From: Vicinamibacterales bacterium
GTDB taxonomy: Bacteria > Acidobacteriota > Vicinamibacteria > Vicinamibacterales > UBA8438
Length of the DNA: 64,000 nt
Assembly: GCA_965222905.1 (NCBI GenBank)
Contig: OZ244976.1
Span: 7,301,261-7,365,260 of the forward strand
Direction: 5' to 3'
Under the pieces are notes generated by a model that was not told the DNA's origin, did no database searches, and worked only from the letters and a program-made list of their open reading frames with translations. A program made the translations under genes and the position numbers. Below are positions 35,857 through 47,264 of the stretch, piece by piece; position 1 is the first letter of the stretch, and every line of letters starts with the position of its first letter.

Positions 35857-37018
35857 GTAGAGTCGACGACTGGCGCGGTGGCGGTAGGCGGATGGGGGTA
35901 GCTGTTTCCGGCGGCTTTCGCAATGCCGGTGCCTCACTCCCCGCCGTGGCTCCGTTTCCAGTCGCCGCTCATCGAACCGGACGGGCGGTTTTCCCGCATC
36001 CGGCTCTCGGACGAGATCATGCCTTCGCCCACGGAAAGCTCGTCGTACGCGGTCCAAGGTGCGTTAGCCCGTAGTCGATCCACAGCCGCTCGTCCGGGAA
36101 GCGCACGGATTTCCCGGACCGTACCTTGTGCTTGCGACAGAGCCACTGGCGCAGCCGCCGGGTGGCGTGCTGGTCGATTGCTGCGTAGGCCGGGCTGACC
36201 TGACCCAAGGTGAAGTAGTTCGCCCAGCCGGTCAGCAACCGGTTGATGCGACCCACCACGACCTCGGGTTCCAGAAGCCCGTAACGCGACGCGGTCAGCT
36301 CACTCACGCGACGGCAGATGCTCTGGACGCTCGCCGGGCTCGGGCGGGTGCCGATGTAGGCGCGGCCCGTATCCCGACGGTAGTTGCGTCCAATCCGGTA
36401 GCCGAGGAACGTCATCGACTCCTCCGGCACCCGGCAGCAGCGGGTCTTCTCGGCGTTGATGGGCAACTTCAGACGCTTCAGCAGGCCTTCGACCGCCGAC
36501 CGCATTGCTGCCGCCGGCGCCTTGCCGAGCACCGCGAAGTCGTCCGCGTAGTTGACGATTTCCGCCTCGAAGCGCCGGGCATAGCCCAACACCTTCCAAC
36601 CCAGAATGAAGCGACGCATGTAGATGTTGCTGAACAGCGGCGAAATCGGTGACCCTTGCGGGGTCCCTTTCCGCTCACGACGCGCCCGGTTCGTGAGGCG
36701 GCGTCCGCCGTGACCGTCGTCATCTTCTACCGCCATCTCCAGCCATGCCTTGACCCACCCCAACAGCCGCCCGTCGCTCACGCGCCGGGCGATGGACCGC
36801 AGCAGGTCGGCGTGCGGGATTTGGCCGAAGTAGTCTGACAAGTCGGCGTCAACCACCTCCTCGTGGCCCGTATTCAGCAGCCGGTGCACGCGCTTGACCG
36901 CGCCGTGCGCGTGTCGGCCCGGCCGATAGGCGTACTGCTCCGGTTGCAGGTCGGCTTCGAAGATAGGCGACAACACCAGCATCGCCGCCGTCTGCGCCAC
37001 CCGGTCCCGGAGGCACGG
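35857..37018 (-). mobile_element. Group II intron A, 3' half (RT C-terminal part, DV, DVI, 3' end ...ACTCTAC)
   Basis: DV 'GAGCCGGATGCGGGAAAACCGCCCGTCCGGTTC' just downstream of the RT stop; long DVI ending in AC at 35857. Confidence 0.9.
36017..37018 (-). pseudogene. ltrA: Group II intron RT/maturase, 5'-truncated at the GxP motif (class F/G-like by recall)
   Basis: 'LRDRVAQ', 'YAYRPGR', 'DADLSDYF..IPH', 'GTPQGSPISPLFSNIY', YADD, thumb 'GWANYF'. Confidence 0.9.
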
Positions 37019-37076
37019 GACGCCGGCTTCATAATGCACCTCCTGCAGCACGGCTTCGGGATTCTCGTGCGACCGT

Positions 37077-39119
37077 TCAAATTCTCGAGGAGTTTCGGAC
37101 CCAGGCGCGCAATGTCTCCTTTTTGTCGTCGTCGAAGGCGATCCAGTACGGCGAGCCGTGGTTAGGTCGTCGAGCCGTGACTACGCCGCGGTCGATCCAG
37201 TAGTAGACCACATTGCGGCTGACGCCGAGTTCGTCGGCGACCTGACGGACGCTGCGCTCGCCGGGGCGCTTGAAGTCGGGAGCCGGAATCCGGTGCTTGT
37301 GGCGGATCCAACGGACCATCGAGACGTTGAATGCCCCGCCTTTGGCGCTCCGGCGACCCTCCCGGTTCAGCGCTGCTGCGACCTGCTCGTCGGAGCGCTC
37401 GCGAGCCAGCTCGCGCACCCGGTCGACGACCTCGTCGGGATACCGGAGGCGATCGGCAATGTTGGCGGGCAGCGTAACCTCGAGGTCTTCGCAGGCCCCA
37501 CCCTGCCACCGGACATGCAAGATGGCGGTCTTGCGTTCGCCGAACCGCTCGACGGTGATGTCCTTGATCACGAGCCGGAGGATGCGCTTCTTGTCCTTCG
37601 CCTTGGTCGTGGGCGCGTTCCACAGGCGGGGGAAGTCGTGGGCGAGCGCCGCCACCCGGGCGCGCTGCTCCGGCGTGACCACGAGCGCTTCCTTGCTCTG
37701 AAAGTCAGCAAACTGCGTCCTGACCTCTTCGAGCCGCACCAGGGCGTCGTTCCAGCGCTGCTCGAGCGTCGCGGCCACGAGGCGATTCGACGGATCGACC
37801 TCCTCGTAGCGGCGCTGGGCCAACTGCGCTTCGTACTCGGCTCGTTCCAGGCGCATGCGCCATTGGCCGGACATCGCCTTGTCCCGGTGTTCGAGCTGCC
37901 GTAGCGCTTCCTCGGCGACCTCGAGCTCGGCAGGTTCGAGCACCGCCAGCATCCGCTCCGAGACCGCGGTGTCCAGCAGGTCGCAACGCAGGCTCATGCA
38001 GCTGGTGGTCGCCACTCCTTCGCGCCGCCGCGCGTTGCATTCGTAGGTCGGGTAGATGCCGCCGTTGCCCTTGTAGCGGACGGTCAGTCGGCGACCGCAG
38101 CGCCCGCACAGCAGCAGGCCTTGGAGCAGTGCGAGTCCTTCCCGCGCGGCGCCGCTCAAGAGCATGTGCTCGGCATTGGTACGGTTGTTCTCGAGCAGCT
38201 GCTGGTTCCGCTCGTACTCCGGCCAGGAGACATAGCCGTCGTGGTGATTCTGGATCCGCACGAGCCAGGCGTCCAGCGGGACGCAGCGCGTGCGCATGCG
38301 GACGTCGCCTTCGGGGGAAACCTCCTTCGTGCTCTGGTGACGCCCGAAGACATACGCCCCGGCATACGTGGGGTTCTTGAGAATGTCGAGCACGCGGTTG
38401 TGGTTCAGCCGACCCCAGATGAGTCTGCCGTCCCACGCCCCGCCGTAGGCGCGCTTCGGGAACCGCAGTTGCTGTCGGCCGAAGTGGTGCACGACCGCGT
38501 AGGCGCTGCCCGTCTGGCGGAAGACCTCGAAGACCAGCCGGACAGCGCCCTGGACCTCCTGGTCCGGATCGAGCACGATGCGCCCCTCGTCGGCGTAGCA
38601 CAGGCCGATCGGCAACGGGAAGCGGAGCTCACCCTTCTGGGCCTTGTGGAGCTTGCCGCCCTGGAGGCGCGCGCGAATGACGTGCAGCTCGGCCTGGGCG
38701 ATGGTGGCCTTGAGGCCCAACAGCAGCGCGTCGTTGAAGTCCGCCGGGTCGTAGCAGCCGTCCTCGTCGATGACCAGCGTCCGGGTCAGCGCGCAGATCT
38801 CGATCAACCGATGCCATTCCAGGTTCGAGCGGGCCAACCGTGAGGCTTCCAGGGCAAAGATCGCGCCGACGCGGCCCAGCGACACATCGGCGACCAGCGT
38901 CTTGAAGTCCTCGCGGTTGGTCGTCTGCGCCCCCGACTGCCCGAGGTCCTGGTCGAGGATCCGGATTCGCTCCGGCGCCCACATCATCTCGACGGCCCGG
39001 TTCCGCAGGTCGTACTGCCGCTCGGTACTCTCCTGGTGATGGCGCACCTGCCCCATCGTCGACTGCCGGATATAGATGTAGGCCGGCTTCTGCAGGTGGT
39101 GGCTCTGTACTTTCGACAT
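37077..39119 (-). CDS. Large serine recombinase (resolvase + recombinase + Zn ribbon + coiled coil + C-terminal HTH)
   Basis: 'YIYIRQST' catalytic Ser, 'DLGQSG', 'EASRLARS', 'ILKNPTYAG', 'LLQGLLLCGRCG'. Confidence 0.93.
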   Translation of the reverse strand: MSKVQSHHLQKPAYIYIRQSTMGQVRHHQESTERQYDLRNRAVEMMWAPERIRILDQDLGQSGAQTTNREDFKTLVADVSLGRVGAIFALEASRLARSNLEWHRLIEICALTRTLVIDEDGCYDPADFNDALLLGLKATIAQAELHVIRARLQGGKLHKAQKGELRFPLPIGLCYADEGRIVLDPDQEVQGAVRLVFEVFRQTGSAYAVVHHFGRQQLRFPKRAYGGAWDGRLIWGRLNHNRVLDILKNPTYAGAYVFGRHQSTKEVSPEGDVRMRTRCVPLDAWLVRIQNHHDGYVSWPEYERNQQLLENNRTNAEHMLLSGAAREGLALLQGLLLCGRCGRRLTVRYKGNGGIYPTYECNARRREGVATTSCMSLRCDLLDTAVSERMLAVLEPAELEVAEEALRQLEHRDKAMSGQWRMRLERAEYEAQLAQRRYEEVDPSNRLVAATLEQRWNDALVRLEEVRTQFADFQSKEALVVTPEQRARVAALAHDFPRLWNAPTTKAKDKKRILRLVIKDITVERFGERKTAILHVRWQGGACEDLEVTLPANIADRLRYPDEVVDRVRELARERSDEQVAAALNREGRRSAKGGAFNVSMVRWIRHKHRIPAPDFKRPGERSVRQVADELGVSRNVVYYWIDRGVVTARRPNHGSPYWIAFDDDKKETLRAWVRNSSRI

Positions 39120-39282
39120 CGTCAGCACCACCCTCGATCAGTTCCTGACGGGTGTGGGACGGAAGCGCGTGCCCGCTCGTCGCAGCGGCCGCGCGCTCGG
39201 AAGCGATCCAGCACTGCAGCATGTTCGCGGTCAACAGGCCGGCGGTCTGGACATCGACGGGCACGGCGGCCGCCATCTGCAT

Positions 39283-39627
39283 TCAGTCGATCGGCTCCCG
39301 ACGTCGCAGCAGCTCGAGGTTGATCGCGGCGATCTCGTCGAGGAGCTGTCGCGTCCGGCGGTAGTTGGCGACGAACTGCTCGACCTGGCTGCGATGCTCC
39401 TGCGGCACGTAGACCATGACCGGTCGCGCCTTCGGCATGCTGACCGACAGGTACAGCTTCGGACCGTGGCCGATACCGCGCGCGCACTTGCACCCTGGTC
39501 GTCCGCAGCGCTTGAAGCGTTCGATGAGCGAGCCGCGCAGGATGGCCTTCAGGGACGGGAGCTGCCGCAGCAGCATTGTCCGGCGCCTCCGTAACGTACT
39601 CGCCAAGCGTGTTTTCAGACCAGTCAT
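39283..39627 (-). CDS. DUF6788-like protein
   Basis: 'LRGSL....RCGRPGCKC..G.GHGP..YLS...YVP'. Confidence 0.75.
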   Translation of the reverse strand: MTGLKTRLASTLRRRRTMLLRQLPSLKAILRGSLIERFKRCGRPGCKCARGIGHGPKLYLSVSMPKARPVMVYVPQEHRSQVEQFVANYRRTRQLLDEIAAINLELLRRREPID

Positions 39628-39657
39628 ACAACTGGTCTGATACTACACCTCTCGACC

Positions 39658-39976
39658 TCATTTGGGAAGCCCTCGGTCGTCGGCCTGCTCCAAGGCCGCC
39701 AACAGCTCGGTCAGCGCGATGAGCTTCACGAAATCGAGGACATGAGCGCCGCTCGCAAGATCCGCCGCCGCGGCCGGAACCTCTCGATCCGTCCACTCGC
39801 GGGGCACGCAGAACGTACCTCCGGAGGTGCCCTGCAGAATGAGCGTGTCGATGCCGGAGACGCGGCGCGTCTTCAGGATCGGAAACCGCCGACCCCGGAG
39901 TGGATGAAACGGGTGGGTGATCTCAGTCCACCCCGACGGCTCGTTGGGGCGATGTGCAGTTCGCGATGACCGTGGG
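39658..39976 (-). CDS. DUF5372 (Y4bD/Y4pK-like) protein with no start codon ahead of the conserved motif inside the integrated element
   Basis: 'ITHPFHPLRGRRF', 'VPREWTD'; frame is open up to the att junction. Confidence 0.7.
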
Positions 39977-40765
39977 AATGCCCAAGCGGCGCTCGCTTCC
40001 GTCCTTCTTCGGTATCCCAACCGACCGGACCGGAGGCGGGAAGTACGTGCCCGACGACATCCGATTCCAAATCTTGTAGAGATTGTTCTTCAGGTCCTGC
40101 TCGAACATCTCGACAGACTCAGCATCGACGCCAGCTGCTCCGTGGTTCGCCTTGACCCGAGTGTAGGCCTCCCAAACCACCCACTTGGAAATATTGAACG
40201 GCTTCGCGTGGCTCGACGGCTCCTCCCGCGCGCGCGGTTGACCGTCGGGACACGCAGGATGACGCGACCCCTTTGCTCCATCGAGTTTCCCCGACTTCAT
40301 CGCTCGTACGGGTCGCTCCGCCCCTGTGCCTCGCATCGGGCTTCTCATCCTTGGGGGTCGGCCCCTTGGATTTCTCCCTTCACATCGAGGCGACAGGTTC
40401 CCACGTTCCACACAAGGGCCTGGTGCAGGGTCACGCCACCTTTATGCCGGGTGCCGCCCAGCCAAGCTGCAGGCTCCCGCTGGACTTGTCCCGGGTTAAC
40501 GACTCGCCCCGGTTTCGACACCGTCCCTACGCTTTCGACACGTTGCCGGTGGTTCATACACTTCGTCTCCCTGTACCCTACCTGACGCGGTCAAGCCGCG
40601 CCGTTTCCGTGACGCTTACCACCTCGGCTCTTGACCGAAGCAGCGCACGGCGGTTTGAAGCCTCCCCCTGCCGGGCGGCTCCGAGGGGCCTGCCCTCATC
40701 CCTCATGCAGCATGGCTGCAGCTAGGTGGCCATCTCGGCCTCCTTTCCGCGCCTTCGTGGCGCAC
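39975..40765 (-). mobile_element. Group II intron B (class D, RmInt1-like), 5' half
   Basis: 5' GTGCG at 40765; RT N-terminus 'KPFNISK..VWEAY..VKAN.GAAGVD...NLYKIWNRMSSGTYFPPPVR' at 40216-39975; expected start codon reads TCG after GGAGG. Confidence 0.88.
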
Positions 40766-41525
40766 AATCATCGGCGTAACGCACGATGATAGTGTCCCCC
40801 GTAGCCTTTCGGGCGCGCCACTTCTTCTGGAACCAGAGGTCGAGGACATAGTGCAGGTAAACGTTGGCGAGGATGGGTGAAACCACCGCGCCTTGCGGCG
40901 TTCCCTGCAGGTCGTCCTTCCACTCACCATCTTCCATGACGCCGGCGTTCAGCCACTTGGTAATCAGCCGGAGTACCCGTTTGTCCCCTATTCGGTCCTC
41001 GAGAAACCGCAACAGGTGGTCTCGTGAGAGCCGGTCGAAGAACGCCCGGATGTCCGCATCGATTATCCAGTTGACCTTATGCCGTGCAATCCCGAAAGCC
41101 AGGGCGTCAAGCGCATCGTGCGCCCCGCGCCCCGGTCGGAACCCGTAGCTGAACCCGAGAAACTCCGGCTCGTAAATCGGCGTCAGGATTACATCCACTA
41201 CCGCCTTCTGGACGATCTTGTCCTCCAGGGCAGCAATGCCGAGCGGTCGTGTCCCGCCGTCCGGTTTGGGTATTTCAACCCGCCGCGACGGCAGCGCCCG
41301 ATACGCTCCCGTGTGTACGCGTCCGTGCAGGTCGAGCAACCGCTCTTCCAGTCCGTCCTCGTACTCCTTCCACACCAGACCATCCACGCCAGCCGATGCG
41401 GTCTTCTGTAAATCGTAGAAGGCGCACCGCAGCGCGGCCGTCGTGATGTGGTGCAAGAGCGCAGTCAGTTTCTCCTGCGGCTTTCTCGTTGCAGCTTGCC
41501 GTATCCGCTCGACCGCCTGTGACAC
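40766..41525 (-). pseudogene. ltrA: Group II intron RT (class E-like), cut immediately after YADD
   Basis: 'TALLHHI', 'RPLGIAALEDKIVQ', 'GTPQGAVVSPILANVYLHYVLDLWF', 'IVRYADD'. Confidence 0.9.
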
Positions 41526-41643
41526 GCTCTCCCGACCCTGCGTCCGGTACGTGCTTTGGTCTTGCGAATTCCCCTTGGTTGAGGCCCTTCCCTCCAGCAG
41601 CTCCGCAGGTGCTGTCGCTCCCTTGTTCGCCGCTTTCATCGGT

Positions 41644-42483
41644 GTCGGGTCGGAGGAGGCGCGCCCCGCGGGCGCTGGCCTCCGTCCGCCGCTCAAACGG
41701 TACGTGCGGTTTTCCCGCATACCGCTTTCACGAAGACGTCTTCGCGTGATGAGGACCGATGGAGGAATCAAAGAGTGGACCCTCCTCCGGCCCGTCGGGT
41801 TCAGCCAGTCGGCAAGTCTCCTCGGTCGCTGATGTTGGGGTCTTTCACTCATGGAACTGTCCACCTCAGCGCCCTTGCTCATCTCACCGTCCTGTCTGGT
41901 CCCGACCGTCTTCGCCGGCCGCCTTCCCCAACCCACTCGGTTGCCGCCCCCTGACGGTCACGCGGCTTTCACCGCGCTTCAGGTACTATTCGGCCGTCCG
42001 ACTCCTCGACGAGCATCCCTTCCCACTTCGCTCTCGCTTATAGGGTCAGTTGCCGCGGCGCCACCCGCGGACCCGCCGAGGTCTCCCAGGGTCACGCACT
42101 GGTCTTCCATACCGTGCCGCCCGCAAACACCTTGGTGCGGTGGGTGGATGAGATCGCCTTCGCCTCTGTAGTGCAGGCTCGACCTTGCCCCACCTTTGGC
42201 CGACCGGTTCGTCATGGGGTCGCCCCCTCGACTACGGCCCGGTACTGCTCCGCAAACCCTTCGGACCCCACCTCACGGTGGGCGCCCTGTCCTCCGCAGT
42301 TCCGTCGTGGCGGCTCCAGGTCCACCTTGGCTGTGTCCAGCTTTCGCCTGCGTGCCCGTCTAGGTATCTCCATACCTGCCACCTGCGGCCGGCGAGGCAT
42401 TACCCCCGCCTTTGGATACGGCCCCCCTCATCCGGGGGCCGGAGGGACTTCAACCCTCCTGACCAGTGCGCTGCCTGGCGCAC
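41644..42483 (-). ncRNA. ORF-less group II intron D, copy 1 (840 nt)
   Basis: GTGCG start; DV 'AAGCGGTATGCGGGAAAACCGCACGTACCGTTT'; end ...GACCCGAC; removal restores host DIII 'GAGGCAGTAGT|ACCGATG'. Confidence 0.9.
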
Positions 42484-42877
42484 ACTACTGCCTCATCCGA
42501 CTTCTTCATTCCGTGCACCATCGGATACGGAATCCTCCTTCCCTCTGCGGCCCCGGTCCGACTGCCGGGGCAGAATGAAGACCTCCCAGGTCCCAACGAA
42601 GGACGTACGGACGTGCCTGGGTTCTTTGACACCGTGGAGCCCTCCATCACCTCACCTGTCCCGGCGATGTCGGTGTGGCCTTCGACCGCGTTGATAGTCT
42701 CGGCGCTCCAGACCTGCATGTTTTCGATGCTCAATAGCCCTGCCCGTCCGCGCCCCTGTCAACGCTTCACCTGCCGCCTCACAGCGACCGGTGCATGACT
42801 CGGGGTGAAGGTGGTCGGTTACTCCTTCCTTCCGCCGGACTTTCACCGGCCATCCTCCGCCAGTTTGCCTGGCGCAC

Positions 42878-43897
42878 CAACGCTTTCTGCGCAGCACGCT
42901 TCTCCGGCGGCGTCTCGCCCGTCTTCTTGTCCTGCCAGCAGCGACGGCCGCGCTCCGGCTCCGATACGTGACTCCGAACCCCTACCTCGCCGAGCCCCAC
43001 CAACGTCTCGTCGCTGTGATAGCCCTTGTCGGCCACCACCTCTTCGACCCCCGCGCCCTCCGGCTGCACCGCTTCAACCTGTTCGGCCGCCATGATCAGC
43101 GTCTCCGGCAGCGTGGCCGTATCACCGTCCGATGCATCCTGCACCGTCACCGAGACGATGGCGCCCGTGTCCATGTCGACCCCGTGCTCGGCCTTGTGAG
43201 CCAAGTGCGTCCGACCGTCCTTCATCTTCGCGATCTTCGCGTCAGGATCCTGCGGCGATTTCCACTCCTTGTTCGACGTCTTCTTGTTCTTCCGAGACCG
43301 GTCGAACCGAGCCAGCTCCGCCCGCGTCGGCGTCTCCACACCCGACGCTTCCGCCAACCGCCGAATGAACGCCTCGTAGGATTCGCCCGTGTCCCGACGC
43401 TCGATGCTCCGCATCGCCGCGTTCGCTTCCAGCGTCGTCGCATCGATGCCGACCGTCTTCCCGACGACCAGACCCGCTTCAGACAGGCGCTCCAGAACCC
43501 ACGTGAAGACCGCCTCGTGCGTCTCCACGTCGATCAACCGGCGCGTCCGCGACAACGTCGAGTGATCCGGCGCCGACTCGGTCAACTCCAGGTCCAGGAA
43601 CGACCGCAGGCTCAGTGAATCGGCCACCCGCCACGCAATCCCCCGCTCCGAAGACAGGCCCTCGAAGTAGCCGATCAACAGCATCCGGAAATACCGCCCA
43701 GGACGCAGACTCGGCCGGCCCATCCGCGCCGCGTAGAAGGCCGAGCACAACCCTTCCACGAACGCGTCGAACCCGCAGTCCTCCAGGACCCGATTCAGGC
43801 GCTCGAAGAAGGGATGACCGTCGCTCGTCGGAAGGTCCGCCGTTTCCACCCACATCGGCGCCGCCTGTCGCGCCGCCGGTCTCTTGCCCATCGCCAT
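42878..43897 (-). pseudogene. IS1182/IS5-like DDE transposase (DUF772 N-terminus), interrupted by intron C; IS end near 43965
   Basis: 'GRPSL.P..YFRMLLIGYFEG..SER', 'PDHSTLSR', 'IDAT', 'VADKGY'. Confidence 0.85.
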
Positions 43898-44400
43898 GCC
43901 GTTCAGTGTACGAAACTCGACCGCGCCGGGGCCAGGCCGGATCCGCGACTTTCGCCACAGGCTGCTATTGCAGCTCGCCGGATACGGCGTAGCTGCCCTT
44001 CTGGAGTACGACACCCAGCACGTGTTTCTGCGCCGGCACTATCTCGCGAGCGGCGAGGAAGACAGACTCTTGCTTCGTCTCAAGGACACGGCAAGCGTCC
44101 TCTTGCTCTCCGCCGGTGGATCCGACGACTGTCCGGCGGCGATGCGCCGCGACCGGGAAGACACTGTCGCATGTGTTTTTATAACCCGATCTGTGACCAC
44201 GCCGCGTTGGAACCGGCTCGGCACACTGCGATCCGCCTCGCGTGACTACACTACCAACCCACTGGTGTCCCAAGAAAGTCGTCTTGGGTCTGTGTAACTC
44301 ATTGTTTAATAACAAGATACACCGATTTCGAGCAGTCATCGACTTGAATTGTTCCCCGCTCTCAGGAGATGCTCACCGCCGTTCTTCGAGGTGGTGAGAC

Positions 44401-45654
44401 ATGTACTCAGGCAAGCTGGTCTTCGCGCAGGTGATGGATCACCTGCCGATGCACACCTTCCGTCAGGCCGTTCGGCGATACGGCGGCGACCGCTACGTCA
44501 AGTCCTTCCCCTGCCACAGCCAGTTTCTGTGCATGGCGTTCGCACAACTGACTTACCGGGAGAGCTTGCGCGACATCGAGGTCTGCATGCGGGCCCAGCG
44601 GCGCAAGCTCTATCACTTGGGCATTCGCAACACGGTGTCGCGCAACACGCTGGCCAACGCGAACAAGCAGCGCGACTGGCGAATCTACGCCGAGGTCGCG
44701 CAGGAGTTGATTCGCATTGCACGGCCGATGTACGCCGACGAGGACCTGGGACTGGATCTCGACAACACGGTGTTTGCCCTGGACGCTTCGACCATCGATC
44801 TGTGTCTGTCCGTGTTTCCGTGGGCCCCGTTCCGGTCCACGAAAGCCGCGGTCAAGCTCCACACGCTGCTCGACCTGCGCGGCCCGATTCCGACGTTCCT
44901 GCATGTGTCCGACGGCAAAATGGCAGATGTTCACGCGCTCGACCGCTTCATCCCCGAGCCTGGGGCCTTCTATGTGATGGATCGTGCCTATCTCGACTTC
45001 GAGCGCCTGCACGCCCTGGCGGCATTCGGCGCGTTCTTCGTCATCCGCGCAAAGTCCAACACGCGATACCACCGTCGGTACTCTCAGCCGGTCGACAAGA
45101 CGACCGGTCTTCGTTGTGATCAGACCATCGTGCTCACGGGCGCAGATTCCACGTCTCGGTATCCCCAGCCTCTCCGCCGCGTGAAGTATTGGGACGAGTC
45201 AACGGGCAAAACGTTCAATTTCCTGACCAACAACTTCGCGATCCCTGCGCTCACGGTCGCCGAGTTGTACCGGCACCGCTGGCAAGTGGAGCTGTTTTTC
45301 AAGTGGATCAAGCAGCACTTGCGGATCAAGTCGTTCTTTGGGACCTCGGAGAACGCCGTCAAGAGCCAACTCTGGATTGCGGTGTCGGTGTACGTGCTCG
45401 TGGCCATCCTCAAAAAACGGCTGGATCTTCCGGTAAGTCTCTACACAATTCTACAGACACTGAGTTTGACAGCGTTCGAGAAAACCCCGCTTTTACGGCT
45501 ATTCTCTGAGACCGATTACACTTCTCATAGTGACGACGCCCGTAACTTGTTGAATCTAGTGCGCCGTGACAAGGCGCTATTCCTCAGCGGGTGCGAATCC
45601 CGCCCGGCAACTGTCGCTCCAGCCGGTAGCAGTCGGAGCGGACGATGGAGGTAA
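44401..45654 (+). CDS. IS4 family transposase (native end NLLNL|LD* split by intron E at 45558)
   Basis: 'FAQLTYRESLRDIE', 'LDAST', 'MDRAY', 'YRHRWQVELFFKWIKQHL' (YREK). Confidence 0.92.
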   Translation: MYSGKLVFAQVMDHLPMHTFRQAVRRYGGDRYVKSFPCHSQFLCMAFAQLTYRESLRDIEVCMRAQRRKLYHLGIRNTVSRNTLANANKQRDWRIYAEVAQELIRIARPMYADEDLGLDLDNTVFALDASTIDLCLSVFPWAPFRSTKAAVKLHTLLDLRGPIPTFLHVSDGKMADVHALDRFIPEPGAFYVMDRAYLDFERLHALAAFGAFFVIRAKSNTRYHRRYSQPVDKTTGLRCDQTIVLTGADSTSRYPQPLRRVKYWDESTGKTFNFLTNNFAIPALTVAELYRHRWQVELFFKWIKQHLRIKSFFGTSENAVKSQLWIAVSVYVLVAILKKRLDLPVSLYTILQTLSLTAFEKTPLLRLFSETDYTSHSDDARNLLNLVRRDKALFLSGCESRPATVAPAGSSRSGRWR

Positions 45655-47264
45655 CGACATCGGCTGAAGCACTCCGACGACAAAGGGCCGCCCTGGGCGG
45701 TTCAGCGACCACGCGGGCTACAACGCGAGTAAACGCCGAGCAGGCCTCGAAACGGGTAACGCGGAAGCCGACCCGCCTGGATTACGGGGAAGGCTGCCAG
45801 CGGTCGGGAAGCGAGCGACGCGAGCACCGACCGGTTCCGCCGGGGTAATGGCGGCAGCACGCGTGGACGAGGGGAATGGACGCAACACGGGAAGCCCTGC
45901 CGGCGGCGTGGCACGCGCCAACCGACGACCCGTGAGGGCAAGGTCGGGCCGGCCAGGGTGGCGGAGAAGCCCGTACTGTGCGCCAGGCAGCGCACTGGTC
46001 AGGAGGGTTGAAGTCCCTCCGGCCCCCGGATGAGGGGGGCCGTATCCAAAGGCGGGGGTAATGCCTCGCCGGCCGCAGGTGGCAGGTATGGAGATACCTA
46101 GACGGGCACGCAGGCGAAAGCTGGACACAGCCAAGGTGGACCTGGAGCCGCCACGACGGAACTGCGGAGGACAGGGCGCCCACCGTGAGGTGGGGTCCGA
46201 AGGGTTTGCGGAGCAGTACCGGGCCGTAGTCGAGGGGGCGACCCCATGACGAACCGGTCGGCCAAAGGTGGGGCAAGGTCGAGCCTGCACTACAGAGGCG
46301 AAGGCGATCTCATCCACCCACCGCACCAAGGTGTTTGCGGGCGGCACGGTATGGAAGACCAGTGCGTGACCCTGGGAGACCTCGGCGGGTCCGCGGGTGG
46401 CGCCGCGGCAACTGACCCTATAAGCGAGAGCGAAGTGGGAAGGGATGCTCGTCGAGGAGTCGGACGGCCGAATAGTACCTGAAGCGCGGTGAAAGCCGCG
46501 TGACCGTCAGGGGGCGGCAACCGAGTGGGTTGGGGAAGGCGGCCGGCGAAGACGGTCGGGACCGGACAGGACGGTGAGATGAGCAAGGGCGCTGAGGTGG
46601 ACAGTTCCATGAGTGAAAGACCCCAACATCAGCGACCGAGGAGACTTGCCGACTGGCTGAACCCGACGGGCCGGAGGAGGGTCCACTCTTTGATTCCTCC
46701 ATCGGTCCTCATCACGCGAAGACGTCTTCGTGAAAGCGGTATGCGGGAAAACCGCACGTACCGTTTGAGCGGCGGACGGAGGCCAGCGCCCGCGGGGCGC
46801 GCCTCCTCCGACCCGACACCGTTGAAGCTGGGCAATGCCGGCCGAGGGAAGGGGCTTCAGGTGGAAGGGATGGCGAAAGGGAACAGGCTCCGGGAGTGGC
46901 CGAACGGCCTATCACCCCGATGAATGAGCAGGAATGCCAGACGTCATCACATGCATAAGCGAAGGGGACGACCCGCGCGGTCGCCGTCGTCAGGGCGTCA
47001 ACAGGTCTGACGACGCACCGGCCGGCCAACGCCAGGGTGTGAGCCGGGTGCCACGGCTTGCAAGACCCGCCCGCTGGTCGCAACTGGAAAGCCCGTGTGC
47101 GAGCCGCATGATTCCACTGGAGAGCCCGGTGCCGGAAATCGGCACGCCGGGTTCGGAGAGCGGGGGGAGGAAACGTGCCCATGGGACTCGGACTGCGGCC
47201 CGGTGCGAAAGCGCCGGCAGAGCCACCGACTCCCTACTGGTTACGCGCCTCCCCTCGACTCTAC
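45559..47264 (+). ncRNA. ORF-less group II intron E (866 nt without the nested intron)
   Basis: GTGCG start; EBS1 TGGATT (45778-45783) pairs with exon AATCTA; DV at about 47121-47156; end ...ACTCTAC; removal restores the transposase stop. Confidence 0.88.
45978..46817 (+). ncRNA. ORF-less group II intron D, copy 2 (840 nt)
   Basis: Near-identical inverted copy of 41644-42483; removal restores DIII 'GAAGCCCGTACT|ACCGTTG...GGGCTTC'. Confidence 0.9.

Follow-up and report, generated by a model that had tools for sequence, protein, structure and literature searches.

A 2,960-bp DNA element carried by a Vicinamibacterales bacterium is very probably a parasite of a parasite, integrating at one exact spot in the reverse transcriptase (RT) gene of group II introns. 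It has three genes (DUF5372, DUF6788 and a large serine recombinase, LSR) and no cargo, and very likely represents a minimal mobile element in which the LSR is the sole enzyme. The element lies within a stretch of 64,000 nucleotides of contig OZ244976.1 (positions 7,301,261 to 7,365,260; hereafter the window, to which coordinates refer), where it splits the RT of a group II intron at the Pro codon of "LGIP". Full-text literature searches returned no description of it; the element is apparently undescribed in the searched literature and widespread. The features of the element and of its flanking introns, X on the left and W on the right, are listed here.

37017..39976 (-): whole element, 2,960 bp from core dinucleotide to core dinucleotide; three genomic copies match over 1-2960
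39975..39976 (-): core CC of the left junction (attL), bases 1-2 of the RT Pro codon
39954..39974 (-): left 21-nt att arm, ending GCAC; conserved in 42 non-redundant elements
39658..39975 (-): DUF5372 gene body (Y4bD/Y4pK family by NCBI name), from Pfam; open from the second core base
39640..39668 (-): promoter-like site TTCCCA, 17 nt, TAGTAT, within the DUF5372 ORF at its 3' end; first hexamer weak here
39615..39640 (-): palindrome/hairpin TCAGACCAG, 8 nt, CTGGTCTGA, where the transcript is predicted to start; shared by 41 of 42 elements
39283..39627 (-): DUF6788 gene, 114 aa (Pfam E 2e-28, codon periodicity, family alignment)
39132..39282 (-): spacer between DUF6788 and LSR, non-coding (no codon periodicity, partly poor family alignment)
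37077..39131 (-): LSR, 684 aa (Pfam Resolvase, Recombinase and Zn_ribbon_recom), with an extra C-terminal helix-turn-helix
37030..37043 (-): right-end GGAGG and ATG; the ATG, 14 nt ahead of the core, comes into frame with DUF5372 on end joining
37019..37039 (-): right 21-nt att arm, beginning GTGC; conserved in the alignment of elements
37017..37018 (-): core CC of the right junction (attR), from comparison of junctions across copies
40580..40697 (-): 5' ribozyme part of intron X (Rfam group-II-D1D4-2, 109 bits)
39977..40411 (-): N-terminal part of the intron X RT, ending ...RRLGI(P), from translation and identity with uninterrupted copies
36017..37016 (-): C-terminal part of the intron W RT/maturase, beginning CLRDRVAQ (Pfam RVT_1 and GIIM on ORF 36017-37051(-))
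35857..36008 (-): intron W, domain V-VI (Rfam Intron_gpII, 40.1 bits; gathering score 40)

The sequence-only reading had described a compact 2.96-kb unit of these three genes with RT sequence on both sides, and this was borne out by Pfam, tblastn and identity with an intact RT. Both junction strings that it quoted are reproduced exactly in the window, and the joined ends do read 21 nt, CC and 21 nt. The 21-nt ends flanking CC are CACGGTCATCGCGAACTGCAC and GTGCATTATGAAGCCGGCGTC, and their GTGC...GCAC frame is maintained family-wide. Family members measure 2,924-3,002 bp from core to core, and form a separate sequence family with 57-99% identity within it. Judged from the aligned sequences, a crossover at CC would be the only placement compatible with all junctions.

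The bacterium's own genome contains three copies of the element with base-exact boundaries and two uninterrupted targets (C2:4608586 and C2:4682944), whose sequence equals the left flank, CC and the right flank. Each of the three copies has CC at either end, and CC is also present in both empty sites. Copies 1 and 2 differ by a single base, and copy 3 is decayed. Along 2.5 kb, the left flank in the window is 99.96% identical to the corresponding left halves of two uninterrupted copies. No Pfam match was obtained for ORF 39923-40411(-), which was recognized as RT N-terminal sequence by tblastn and by its identity with an intact RT elsewhere in the genome. An intact intron copy has both the D1D4-2 and the Intron_gpII matches, and the target is a group II intron, in which a ribozyme that has D1-D4 and domain V encloses an RT carrying a maturase domain. 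The W flank pairs with a ...FRPLGI flank in loci L007-L011 and in uninterrupted contigs, and uninterrupted W and X sites were also found in contigs of public runs. The true site of X is RRLGIP-TVADRIAQ and that of W is FRPLGIP-CLRDRVAQ. The in-frame empty site that had earlier been rebuilt from the window, RRLGIP-CLRDRVAQ, turned out to be a chimera of the two introns. Flanks appear to have been swapped over 2.83 Mb between identical copies lying in inverted orientation. Because its flanks come from different introns, excision of the window copy would not restore a working RT, and this copy may be stranded.

The preference for group II intron RTs extends far beyond this genome. The survey identified 498 related loci in species-representative genomes; 7,925 proteins scored at E <= 1e-20 among 8,000 candidates, and related loci also occur in 169 plasmid records. 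Among the best 80 of the 498 loci, which were examined and span many phyla, tblastn detected group II RT on both sides of 48, on one side of 19 and on neither side of 13, of which 11 (counted by eye) are contigs offering no more than 188 nt of flank. Directly at the junction, 64 of the 68 N-side flanks that could be read carry the RT motif, as do 57 of the 61 readable ones on the C side; 51 of 56 have it on both sides. The random control gave both motifs at only 3 of 20,000 positions. Motif misses L020, L060 and L080 are RT on inspection; L017 is an exception, lying in a recD2-like helicase gene with core GT. The targets comprise 49 distinct attB among 51 loci, in introns of at least four Rfam classes (D1D4-2, -3, -4 and -7). 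This tabulation of flanks around LSR homologues and their neighbours, the check proposed with the sequence-only reading, supports the earlier suggestion that attB is an RT motif common to many intron classes. Element ends and targets share GACGGT-like bases beside the core, and relatives of the element were found in transposase genes.

Among the loci, 23 have CC as the core dinucleotide and 53 have GG; read in RT sense, it is always CC. Most of the 80 loci have equal cores at both ends (unequal in L066, L070, L080 and L081). Lineages with CC lie in RT sense and those with GG in antisense, and the LSR tree implies no fewer than six changes of orientation. On this comparative evidence, insertion orientation follows the core dinucleotide alone.

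Element anatomy, together with known features of the LSR enzyme family, points to a simple integration cycle. The excised form would be a 2.96-kb circle with a 44-bp quasi-palindromic attP (GTGC, 17 nt, core, 17 nt, GCAC). For integration, the LSR would bring attP together with an attB formed by the R-x-L-G-I/V-P / x-x-x-D-R-x-x-Q codons, where group II intron RTs are most conserved, and strands would be exchanged at the CC of the proline codon. Integration would split the intron RT/maturase gene, and precise excision would restore it. LSRs acting alone recombine attP with attB and do not recombine attL with attR (PMC2475636, PMC1904298). The contigs of four public runs contained no circle junction and no joint that "goes back", an observation that, made on contigs and not raw reads, carries no weight either way.

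The LSR has a catalytic domain (PF00239, E 3.7e-18, residues 17-168) in which R22, Q23 and S24 are invariant among 24 sequences, followed by a Recombinase domain (PF07508) at 193-316 and a zinc ribbon (PF13408) at 335-394. Its closest solved relative is SPbeta YokA (E 4.5e-16; profile match over residues 58-531). Pfam lists both DUF5372 and DUF6788 as of unknown function, and neither has a sequence or fold match to solved proteins. In DUF6788 a knuckle of the form Cys-x4-Cys-x-Cys...His is invariant in the alignment, and the predicted model has a pLDDT of 89. A promoter scan of the window at the tool threshold found none. The promoter-like site at the end of the DUF5372 ORF, which scores 8/12 in the window copy, reaches at least 8/12 at the equivalent position in 40 of 41 elements. 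In the window copy the DUF6788 ATG is inside the loop of the hairpin, and in L046 the hairpin pairing is preserved via changes on both arms. The putative internal promoter would drive DUF6788 and the LSR in the integrated and free states alike, and DUF6788, co-made with the LSR, would be the better candidate for an excision factor.

The arrangement of DUF5372 is of a different kind, with attP sitting within the 5' end of the gene. The Pfam DUF5372 match (E 1e-18) falls on ORF 39658-40020(-), and the gene body in the window has no in-frame ATG, GTG or TTG of its own ahead of the Pfam domain. Coding periodicity, seen as third-codon-position variation, begins at about element position 31. The 5' part of the gene (ribosome-binding site, ATG and four full codons) is located past the LSR stop at the other end of the element, with a GGAGG-like site 5-8 nt upstream of the ATG, and codons 5-6 straddle the core. 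Since the ribosome-binding site and ATG are at the opposite element end, the full DUF5372 frame exists only in the excised circle. In 63 of 63 elements the frame from the right-end ATG runs in register and open through the joined ends into DUF5372; these do not represent 63 independent events, because arm lengths are fixed and the frame may be inherited. Stops in the junction stretch occur in 0 of 42 elements in this frame, in 39 of 42 in frame +1 and in 27 of 42 in frame +2. The same split layout is found in five of five distant elements at about 42% LSR identity.

DUF5372 is predicted by structural modeling to bind the LSR, with an ipSAE of 0.68 against 0.00 for the best of three controls; among solved complexes 58 of 80 attain this mark, among mismatched pairs 2 of 110, a calibration that is approximate owing to the use of custom alignments. 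The runs share at least 88% of contacts, and the partner pLDDT is at least 67. No sequence relative of DUF5372 was found in the PDB. On DUF5372 the predicted interface comprises the invariant HPFHP motif and the C-terminal helix; on the LSR it comprises residues 341-346, 397-416 and 483-548, on or just after the zinc-ribbon domain. With about even chances, DUF5372 reports the excised state, binding the LSR near the zinc-ribbon/coiled-coil and biasing it toward re-integration.

The modeled interface could also fit the opposite role, that of an ordinary directionality (excision) factor, for known excision factors bind this same region of the LSR. We regard this alternative as fairly unlikely. 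Such a factor would be made from the integrated element, through read-through from outside or from an internal TTG, and the right-end ATG would be incidental or would raise the amount of factor once the element is excised. In 34 of 42 elements the DUF5372 domain is preceded, inside the element, by a TTG or GTG in frame, and therefore a shorter DUF5372 could be made from the integrated form. However, the window subfamily, with a few others, has no such start, and the GGAGG and ATG are conserved even at 42% LSR identity. Outside read-through would find no constant signal, because the upstream flank is RT sense or antisense depending on lineage, and a circle-only factor blocking attP x attB would hinder re-integration.

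The status of the element as an independent parasite can likewise be questioned. If it were a domesticated on/off switch of the intron, of the kind found interrupting sporulation or heterocyst genes, and excised to restore the RT when the intron moves, excision at the core would indeed restore the RT frame exactly, and LSR elements interrupting developmental genes are known (PMC5499854, PMC5025042). Yet the 49 RT targets in at least four intron classes and many phyla, the occurrence of both orientations, the intact introns of the same kind lacking the element in the same genome and the relatives residing in transposase genes make this very improbable; the pattern fits an independent mobile element. 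It is somewhat less improbable, yet still quite unlikely, that the copies are mainly passengers, with intron and element retrohoming together using an RT supplied in trans, or duplicating, and with the LSR rarely active. L027 and L028 do share intron and element (5,681 bp at 99.9%), as do L012/L013, L007/L009 and L060/L066, but entry of the element into two identical intron copies gives the same pattern. Moreover, L044/L055 and L072/L077, each pair in one genome, share the element only (2,932 and 2,962 bp) and so represent independent insertions, and 49 distinct targets require repeated independent integration. Finally, the window flanks come from different introns, as a wrongly joined 3-kb repeat could yield, but the same junctions recur at 80 loci, in assemblies made independently (complete chromosomes and plasmids among them), and in public-run contigs, so that assembly artefacts at repeats are an extremely improbable source of them.

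The mobile parasite of introns favored here combines traits of several known systems. Insertion-sequence circle junction promoters and the circle-specific integrase promoter of ICEclc confine expression to the time after the ends have joined; those systems assemble or reposition a promoter, whereas the present element assembles a reading frame. In IS607 the transposase is a small protein whose DNA-binding domain is N-terminal and whose target specificity is low; the element resembles IS607 in being small and moved by a serine recombinase, and differs in its 684-aa enzyme with PF07508 and PF13408. The LSR architecture is that of phiC31, Bxb1 and SPbeta SprA/YokA (factor SprB/YotN), of which YokA is the nearest solved relative. 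Phage integrases likewise have a 2-bp core, short quasi-palindromic att sites, a gene restored on excision and a small partner (predicted here), and in phiC31 polarity is set by the core dinucleotide. In contrast to those systems, no phage is involved here and 2.96 kb accommodates three genes; the target, a mobile-element motif, occurs in many variants and copies instead of being one host locus; and there are two unrelated small partners, with attP inside the 5' end of one partner gene. The clostridial Tn4451/Tn4453 (TnpX) and Tn5397 (TndX) are likewise not phages, and an LSR moves them by way of a circular form; an identical dinucleotide flanks them on each side, and their targets look like the joint. 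They carry resistance or conjugation cargo and have loosely defined insertion sites. The element shares with them its non-phage, LSR-moved nature, its repeated dinucleotide flanks and a target resembling the joint, but it has no cargo, one RT codon position as target and two accessory genes. Transposons of this type are treated among C. difficile elements in PMC3158075. In mycobacteriophage BPs and its relatives, attP lies in a regulatory gene, so integration alters the product (PMC4557955); a tyrosine integrase there removes the 3' end of a repressor gene, whereas here a serine recombinase removes the 5' end of DUF5372.

Tentatively, and with more doubt than confidence, elements with DUF5372 and an LSR may form a large superfamily of dedicated hyperparasites, in which the attB of each lineage is the most conserved catalytic-region motif of some mobile-element enzyme and DUF5372 is a new type of directionality factor. 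In the window lineage this motif would be the LGIP / xxxDR stretch of group II intron RTs; in rhizobial, Caballeronia and Rhodococcus lineages on plasmids it would be a K-G-x-V-E-R or D-N-A-x-x-E stretch where the DDE core of IS21, ISNCY-type and IS3-like transposases ends. If true, the targets would never be essential to the host, would always be multi-copy and would be moving between hosts, and a DUF5372 gene broken by integration and mended by excision would let the element sense its own topological state.

The element is a clean example of a DNA element parasitising a retroelement. Because each insertion breaks an RT/maturase gene, it may limit intron spread, perhaps reversibly. The family also provides a natural experiment on LSR rules, with one enzyme family that accepts 49 natural attB and has undergone at least six polarity flips through core change alone, and this variation in target and polarity is relevant to serine-integrase engineering. 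An accessory gene whose 5' end extends across attP would be a simple sensor of the integrated versus the free state, and a new regulatory layout.

The 2,960-bp element at 37017-39976 on the minus strand encodes a DUF5372 protein, a DUF6788 protein and a large serine recombinase (LSR), and lies within reverse transcriptase (RT) sequence. On its upstream side RT sequence is read up to ...RRLGIP, and on its downstream side the RT picks up at CLRDRVAQ... and runs on through RVT_1 and the maturase domain. The genes interrupted by the element are intron-encoded, because Rfam places a group II ribozyme D1-D4 part and a domain V-VI just beyond the flanks.

Features of the element and its flanks in the window
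within 37017-39976, minus strand: DUF5372 protein (Pfam E 1e-18)
within 37017-39976, minus strand: DUF6788 protein (Pfam E 2e-28)
within 37017-39976, minus strand: LSR of 684 aa, with Resolvase, Recombinase and zinc-ribbon domains and a C-terminal helix-turn-helix
40580-40697: group II D1-D4 ribozyme part, just past the left flank (Rfam)
35857-36008: domain V-VI, just past the right flank (Rfam)

Insertion of an intron into the element was rejected, since it is the RT ORF that is broken and RTs are also found intact. Several mobile elements are nested in the window. Intron X, whose RT half lies left of the element, is itself nested in a second group II intron (Rfam D1D4-6 at 42620-42843; the pair spans window 40580-42843 on the minus strand and is also seen at the related locus L087), and the RT ORF of the outer intron (40722-41936) stops short just past YADD. 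The genome has this nested pair in three places (99.96% identity over 2.5 kb). A further group II D1D4-4 ribozyme part lies at 45585-45728 on the plus strand, and a transposase-like ORF of 411 aa at 42779-44014 on the minus strand.

The element is present three times in its own genome (9.35 Mb, two contigs), and each match spans base 1 to base 2960. Copy 1, in the window, and copy 2 (G000:C2:4507308-4510267) differ by one base, located in the loop of a palindrome, and copy 3 (G000:C2:7390292-7393884; L003/L089) has decayed: it has a 1-nt indel at about position 2088 of the element, and inserted in it is a 628-bp repeat of which the genome has nine near-full-length copies. Copy 1 is flanked by the 5' half of X on the left and the 3' half of a different group II intron, W, on the right; at copy 2 the arrangement is the other way round, with W (Rfam D1D4-4) contributing its 5' half and X its 3' half. 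The genome has two further sites that match the 2.5 kb left of copy 1 at 99.96% identity, and at both the left half of X is followed by CC and then by the right-hand sequence of copy 2 (99.77%). These two sites are uninterrupted copies of X, reading ...RRLGIP-TVADRIAQ.... On sequence grounds W is one intron: at five loci in related Vicinamibacterales assemblies the element sits between ...FRPLGI and CLRDRVAQ, and these flanks are joined directly in contigs of four public sequencing runs (loose ends at 37018). The exact boundaries proposed in the sequence-only reading thus belong to a real element whose site is also found empty, and we infer from its sequence that it is mobile. The empty site rebuilt in that reading, however, is a chimera of X and W and not a true site, because the two flanks of copy 1 come from different introns.

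Copies 1 and 2 are inverted and 2.83 Mb apart, with reciprocally swapped flanks (X-left/W-right vs. W-left/X-right). Either the chromosome was inverted by way of the element or the assembly was misjoined; for an inversion, homologous recombination within the 2.96-kb repeat is the simplest route. Assembly artefact as the origin of the element junctions was also weighed, and was dropped, since independent assemblies, complete chromosomes and plasmids among them, show these junctions at 80 loci, as do contigs of public runs.

A profile search for the LSR in one-genome-per-species contigs returned 498 loci, and the best 80 of these were kept for examination. They show 57-99% identity and come from Acidobacteriota, Burkholderiaceae, Planctomycetota, Myxococcota, Spirochaetota, Nitrospirota, Bacteroidota and other hosts. 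Many are contigs of 2.9-3.0 kb, i.e., the element alone, as expected for a repeat in short-read assemblies. When the flanks of these best 80 of 498 loci were searched by tblastn with two queries, the uninterrupted X RT and the W fragment, 48 loci had RT sequence on both sides and 19 on one side only; the other 13 had none, and 11 of them have at most 188 nt of flank. The element ends were located via their GTGC...GCAC frame, and the flanks were translated in the RT sense. Directly before the core, the two base pairs at the predicted crossover, [LIVMF][GSA][IVLA] is present in 64 of 68 readable loci; xxx[DC][RK] follows it in 57 of 61, and the two motifs occur together in 51 of 56. Among 20,000 random positions in the same loci, the N motif was met 281 times, the C motif 156 times and both three times. 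The targeted introns belong to Rfam classes D1D4-2, -3, -4 and -7, and 49 distinct attB (target) sequences are found among 51 loci with both flanks. The flank survey therefore supports the earlier proposal of a site-specific LSR element whose attB is an RT motif shared by many intron classes.

Three of the loci that miss the motif are RT on inspection: L020 has Arg changed to Ser, L060 has the core GC, and L080 is one base out of register. L081 has C-terminal RT parts on both sides and is rearranged, and one flank of L070 is non-RT. The true exception is L017:1365-4320, which sits within a gene for a recD2-like helicase; both of its cores are GT, and the site resembles the usual right half-site. 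Copies within a genome that share only the element represent independent insertions. Elsewhere, intron and element are duplicated as one unit (L027/L028, 5,681 bp at 99.9%; L012/L013; L060/L066); a loaded intron may still be mobile through RT provided in trans, or the element may have entered identical introns on two occasions.

The element is inserted in the RT sense at 23 loci and antisense at 53. Read in the element sense, the core is CC in the former group and GG in the latter; in both groups, reading along the RT gives the CC of the proline codon without exception. The arms beside the core are near-mirror images (...ACCGTC, core, GACGGT...), therefore polarity is fixed by the core alone. 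In a maximum-likelihood tree of 78 recombinases the two orientations are interleaved with at least six changes, and L053 and L045 have almost identical proteins in opposite orientations. Palindromic GC or unequal cores were observed in L060, L066, L080 and L081, which may be polarity-switch intermediates or products of recombination between copies.

Among 42 aligned non-redundant element copies, third-position variation marks DUF5372 (from about position 31), DUF6788 and the recombinase as the three coding frames. An ORF of 173-179 aa that overlaps DUF6788 in another frame is open in most loci; it was rejected as a gene since its wobble phase is the most conserved one, and its conserved start, SDQLYTWSD, is a palindrome read as protein. 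Between DUF5372 and DUF6788 lies a promoter-like motif (a TTGACA-like hexamer, 17 nt and a TAnnAT hexamer), to which a family-level script gives a score of 8 or more out of 12 in 40 of 41 elements; a promoter scan of the window copy at the tool's threshold returned none, the first hexamer being weak there. The palindrome directly follows this motif in 41 of 42 elements (window 39615-39640, minus strand) and coincides with the predicted start of the transcript. In L046 its pairing is kept through changes on both arms (GACCA/TGGTC to GTACA/TGTAC), which favours a hairpin over a protein-only operator. Contigs from RNA libraries (public runs X15 and X16, labelled as sponge metagenome) cover the LSR and DUF6788 in part, with a depth of 3-7, which is not proof of transcription; the contigs of these runs, matching the window 36400-40600 region, also contain uninterrupted X and W sites.

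The reading frame of DUF5372 stays open as far as the left end of the element, and in the window subfamily it holds no ATG, GTG or TTG before the Pfam domain. At the right end, 45 nt past the recombinase stop, GGAGG and an ATG are found at 37043-37030, the ATG lying 14 nt before the core. When the ends are joined in silico, this ATG falls in frame with DUF5372 with no stop in all 63 elements having both ends, giving products of 105-119 aa; the frame relation is largely inherited, because arm lengths are fixed. Across the 89-nt junction stretch, stops occur in the DUF5372 frame in 0 of 42 elements, against 39 and 27 of 42 in the other two frames. An in-frame TTG or GTG, a possible start of a shorter DUF5372, is present in 34 of 42. 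The split-gene design recurs in all five distant elements considered, with recombinase identity of about 42% (Sinorhizobium, Streptomyces, Rhodococcus and Caballeronia plasmids), their junctions having been placed solely by requiring a restored target motif.

The DUF5372 model (pLDDT 78.5) is a small SH3/KOW-like barrel with a C-terminal helix, and its sole PDB match in a fold search is the small beta-barrel of ribosomal protein eS4 (E 7.5e-3). The high-confidence DUF6788 model (pLDDT 89.4) consists of one helix, a sheet of three strands that carries an invariant Cys/His knuckle, and another, long helix, and it finds nothing better than E 0.6 in the PDB. Neither search gives a function. Complex prediction of the recombinase with DUF5372, run three times, reached ipSAE 0.68, and none of its three controls exceeded 0.00. 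Among complexes with solved structures 58 of 80 attain that mark, and among mismatched pairs 2 of 110, counts that hold only roughly here given the custom alignments used. The runs share at least 88% of contacts, with partner pLDDT of at least 67. The predicted contacts involve the invariant HPFHP motif and C-terminal helix of DUF5372, and recombinase residues 341-346, 397-416 and 483-548, located at the zinc-ribbon domain and beyond it. Because no solved structure is related to DUF5372 in sequence, the prediction does not simply reproduce a known homologous complex; the solved structure of the SPbeta integrase includes its factor. The prediction supports binding of DUF5372 to the recombinase.

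We propose that the recombinase and DUF6788 would be transcribed from the internal predicted promoter whether the element is integrated or free, and that only in the circle would the same transcript cross attP, the joined element ends, into a complete DUF5372 gene. LSRs alone integrate and do not excise, as stated in PMC2475636 and PMC1904298, thus the integrated element would need an excision factor, and of the candidates only DUF6788 would be expressed in that state. DUF5372 would be made only after excision and, as a predicted LSR partner, would turn the recombinase back to integration. We give this assignment, with DUF6788 as excision factor and DUF5372 as re-integration switch, about an even chance of being right. 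That DUF5372 is a conventional excision factor seems unlikely, and the remaining probability falls to other roles, e.g., repression at the palindrome. Logan contigs of public runs contain no going-back joint and two small unrelated skips, and weigh neither way on the circle.

The element is of the kind moved by LSRs; what sets it apart is that its targets form a new class, its gene set is minimal and one accessory gene is split. Full-text literature searches on DUF5372/DUF6788, y4bD/y4bA, serine recombinase with group II intron, attB with intron, and hyperparasite returned no description; "not described" is provisional, because the searches covered openly accessible papers. The main text of an LSR survey (PMC10083194) does not contain "reverse transcriptase," and its supplements may list target genes.

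Recombinase matches on plasmids comprise 169 records: seven at 60-80% identity, an eighth from Microvirga at 57.9% with a comparable score, and 161 mostly near 42%. Members of the family are present in Paraburkholderia phymatum STM815 and in Cupriavidus strains. The public annotation of Paraburkholderia phymatum lists a Y4bD/Y4pK family protein, a DUF6788 family protein and a recombinase family protein, and RT fragments adjoin. Among six distant plasmid records, picked by rank and taxon and not at random, two (Streptomyces, Nostoc) lie in group II RTs at the same motif and four in DDE transposase genes: two IS21 istA (where the rve domain ends at the junction), one IS3-like rve_2 and one ISNCY-type of pNGR234a. 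These four transposases are split at ...K|G-x-V-E-R or ...D|N-A-x-x-E, and the pNGR234a copy is the y4b gene set. In loci L090, L094, L095 and L096, DUF5372 and an LSR are accompanied by a helix-turn-helix gene replacing DUF6788, and IS21, IS3-like or ISNCY-type transposases are interrupted at the conserved motif that ends the catalytic core. Small as it is, this six-record sample suggests a specialisation of the wider DUF5372-LSR group: its targets would be conserved motifs in the enzymes of other mobile elements.
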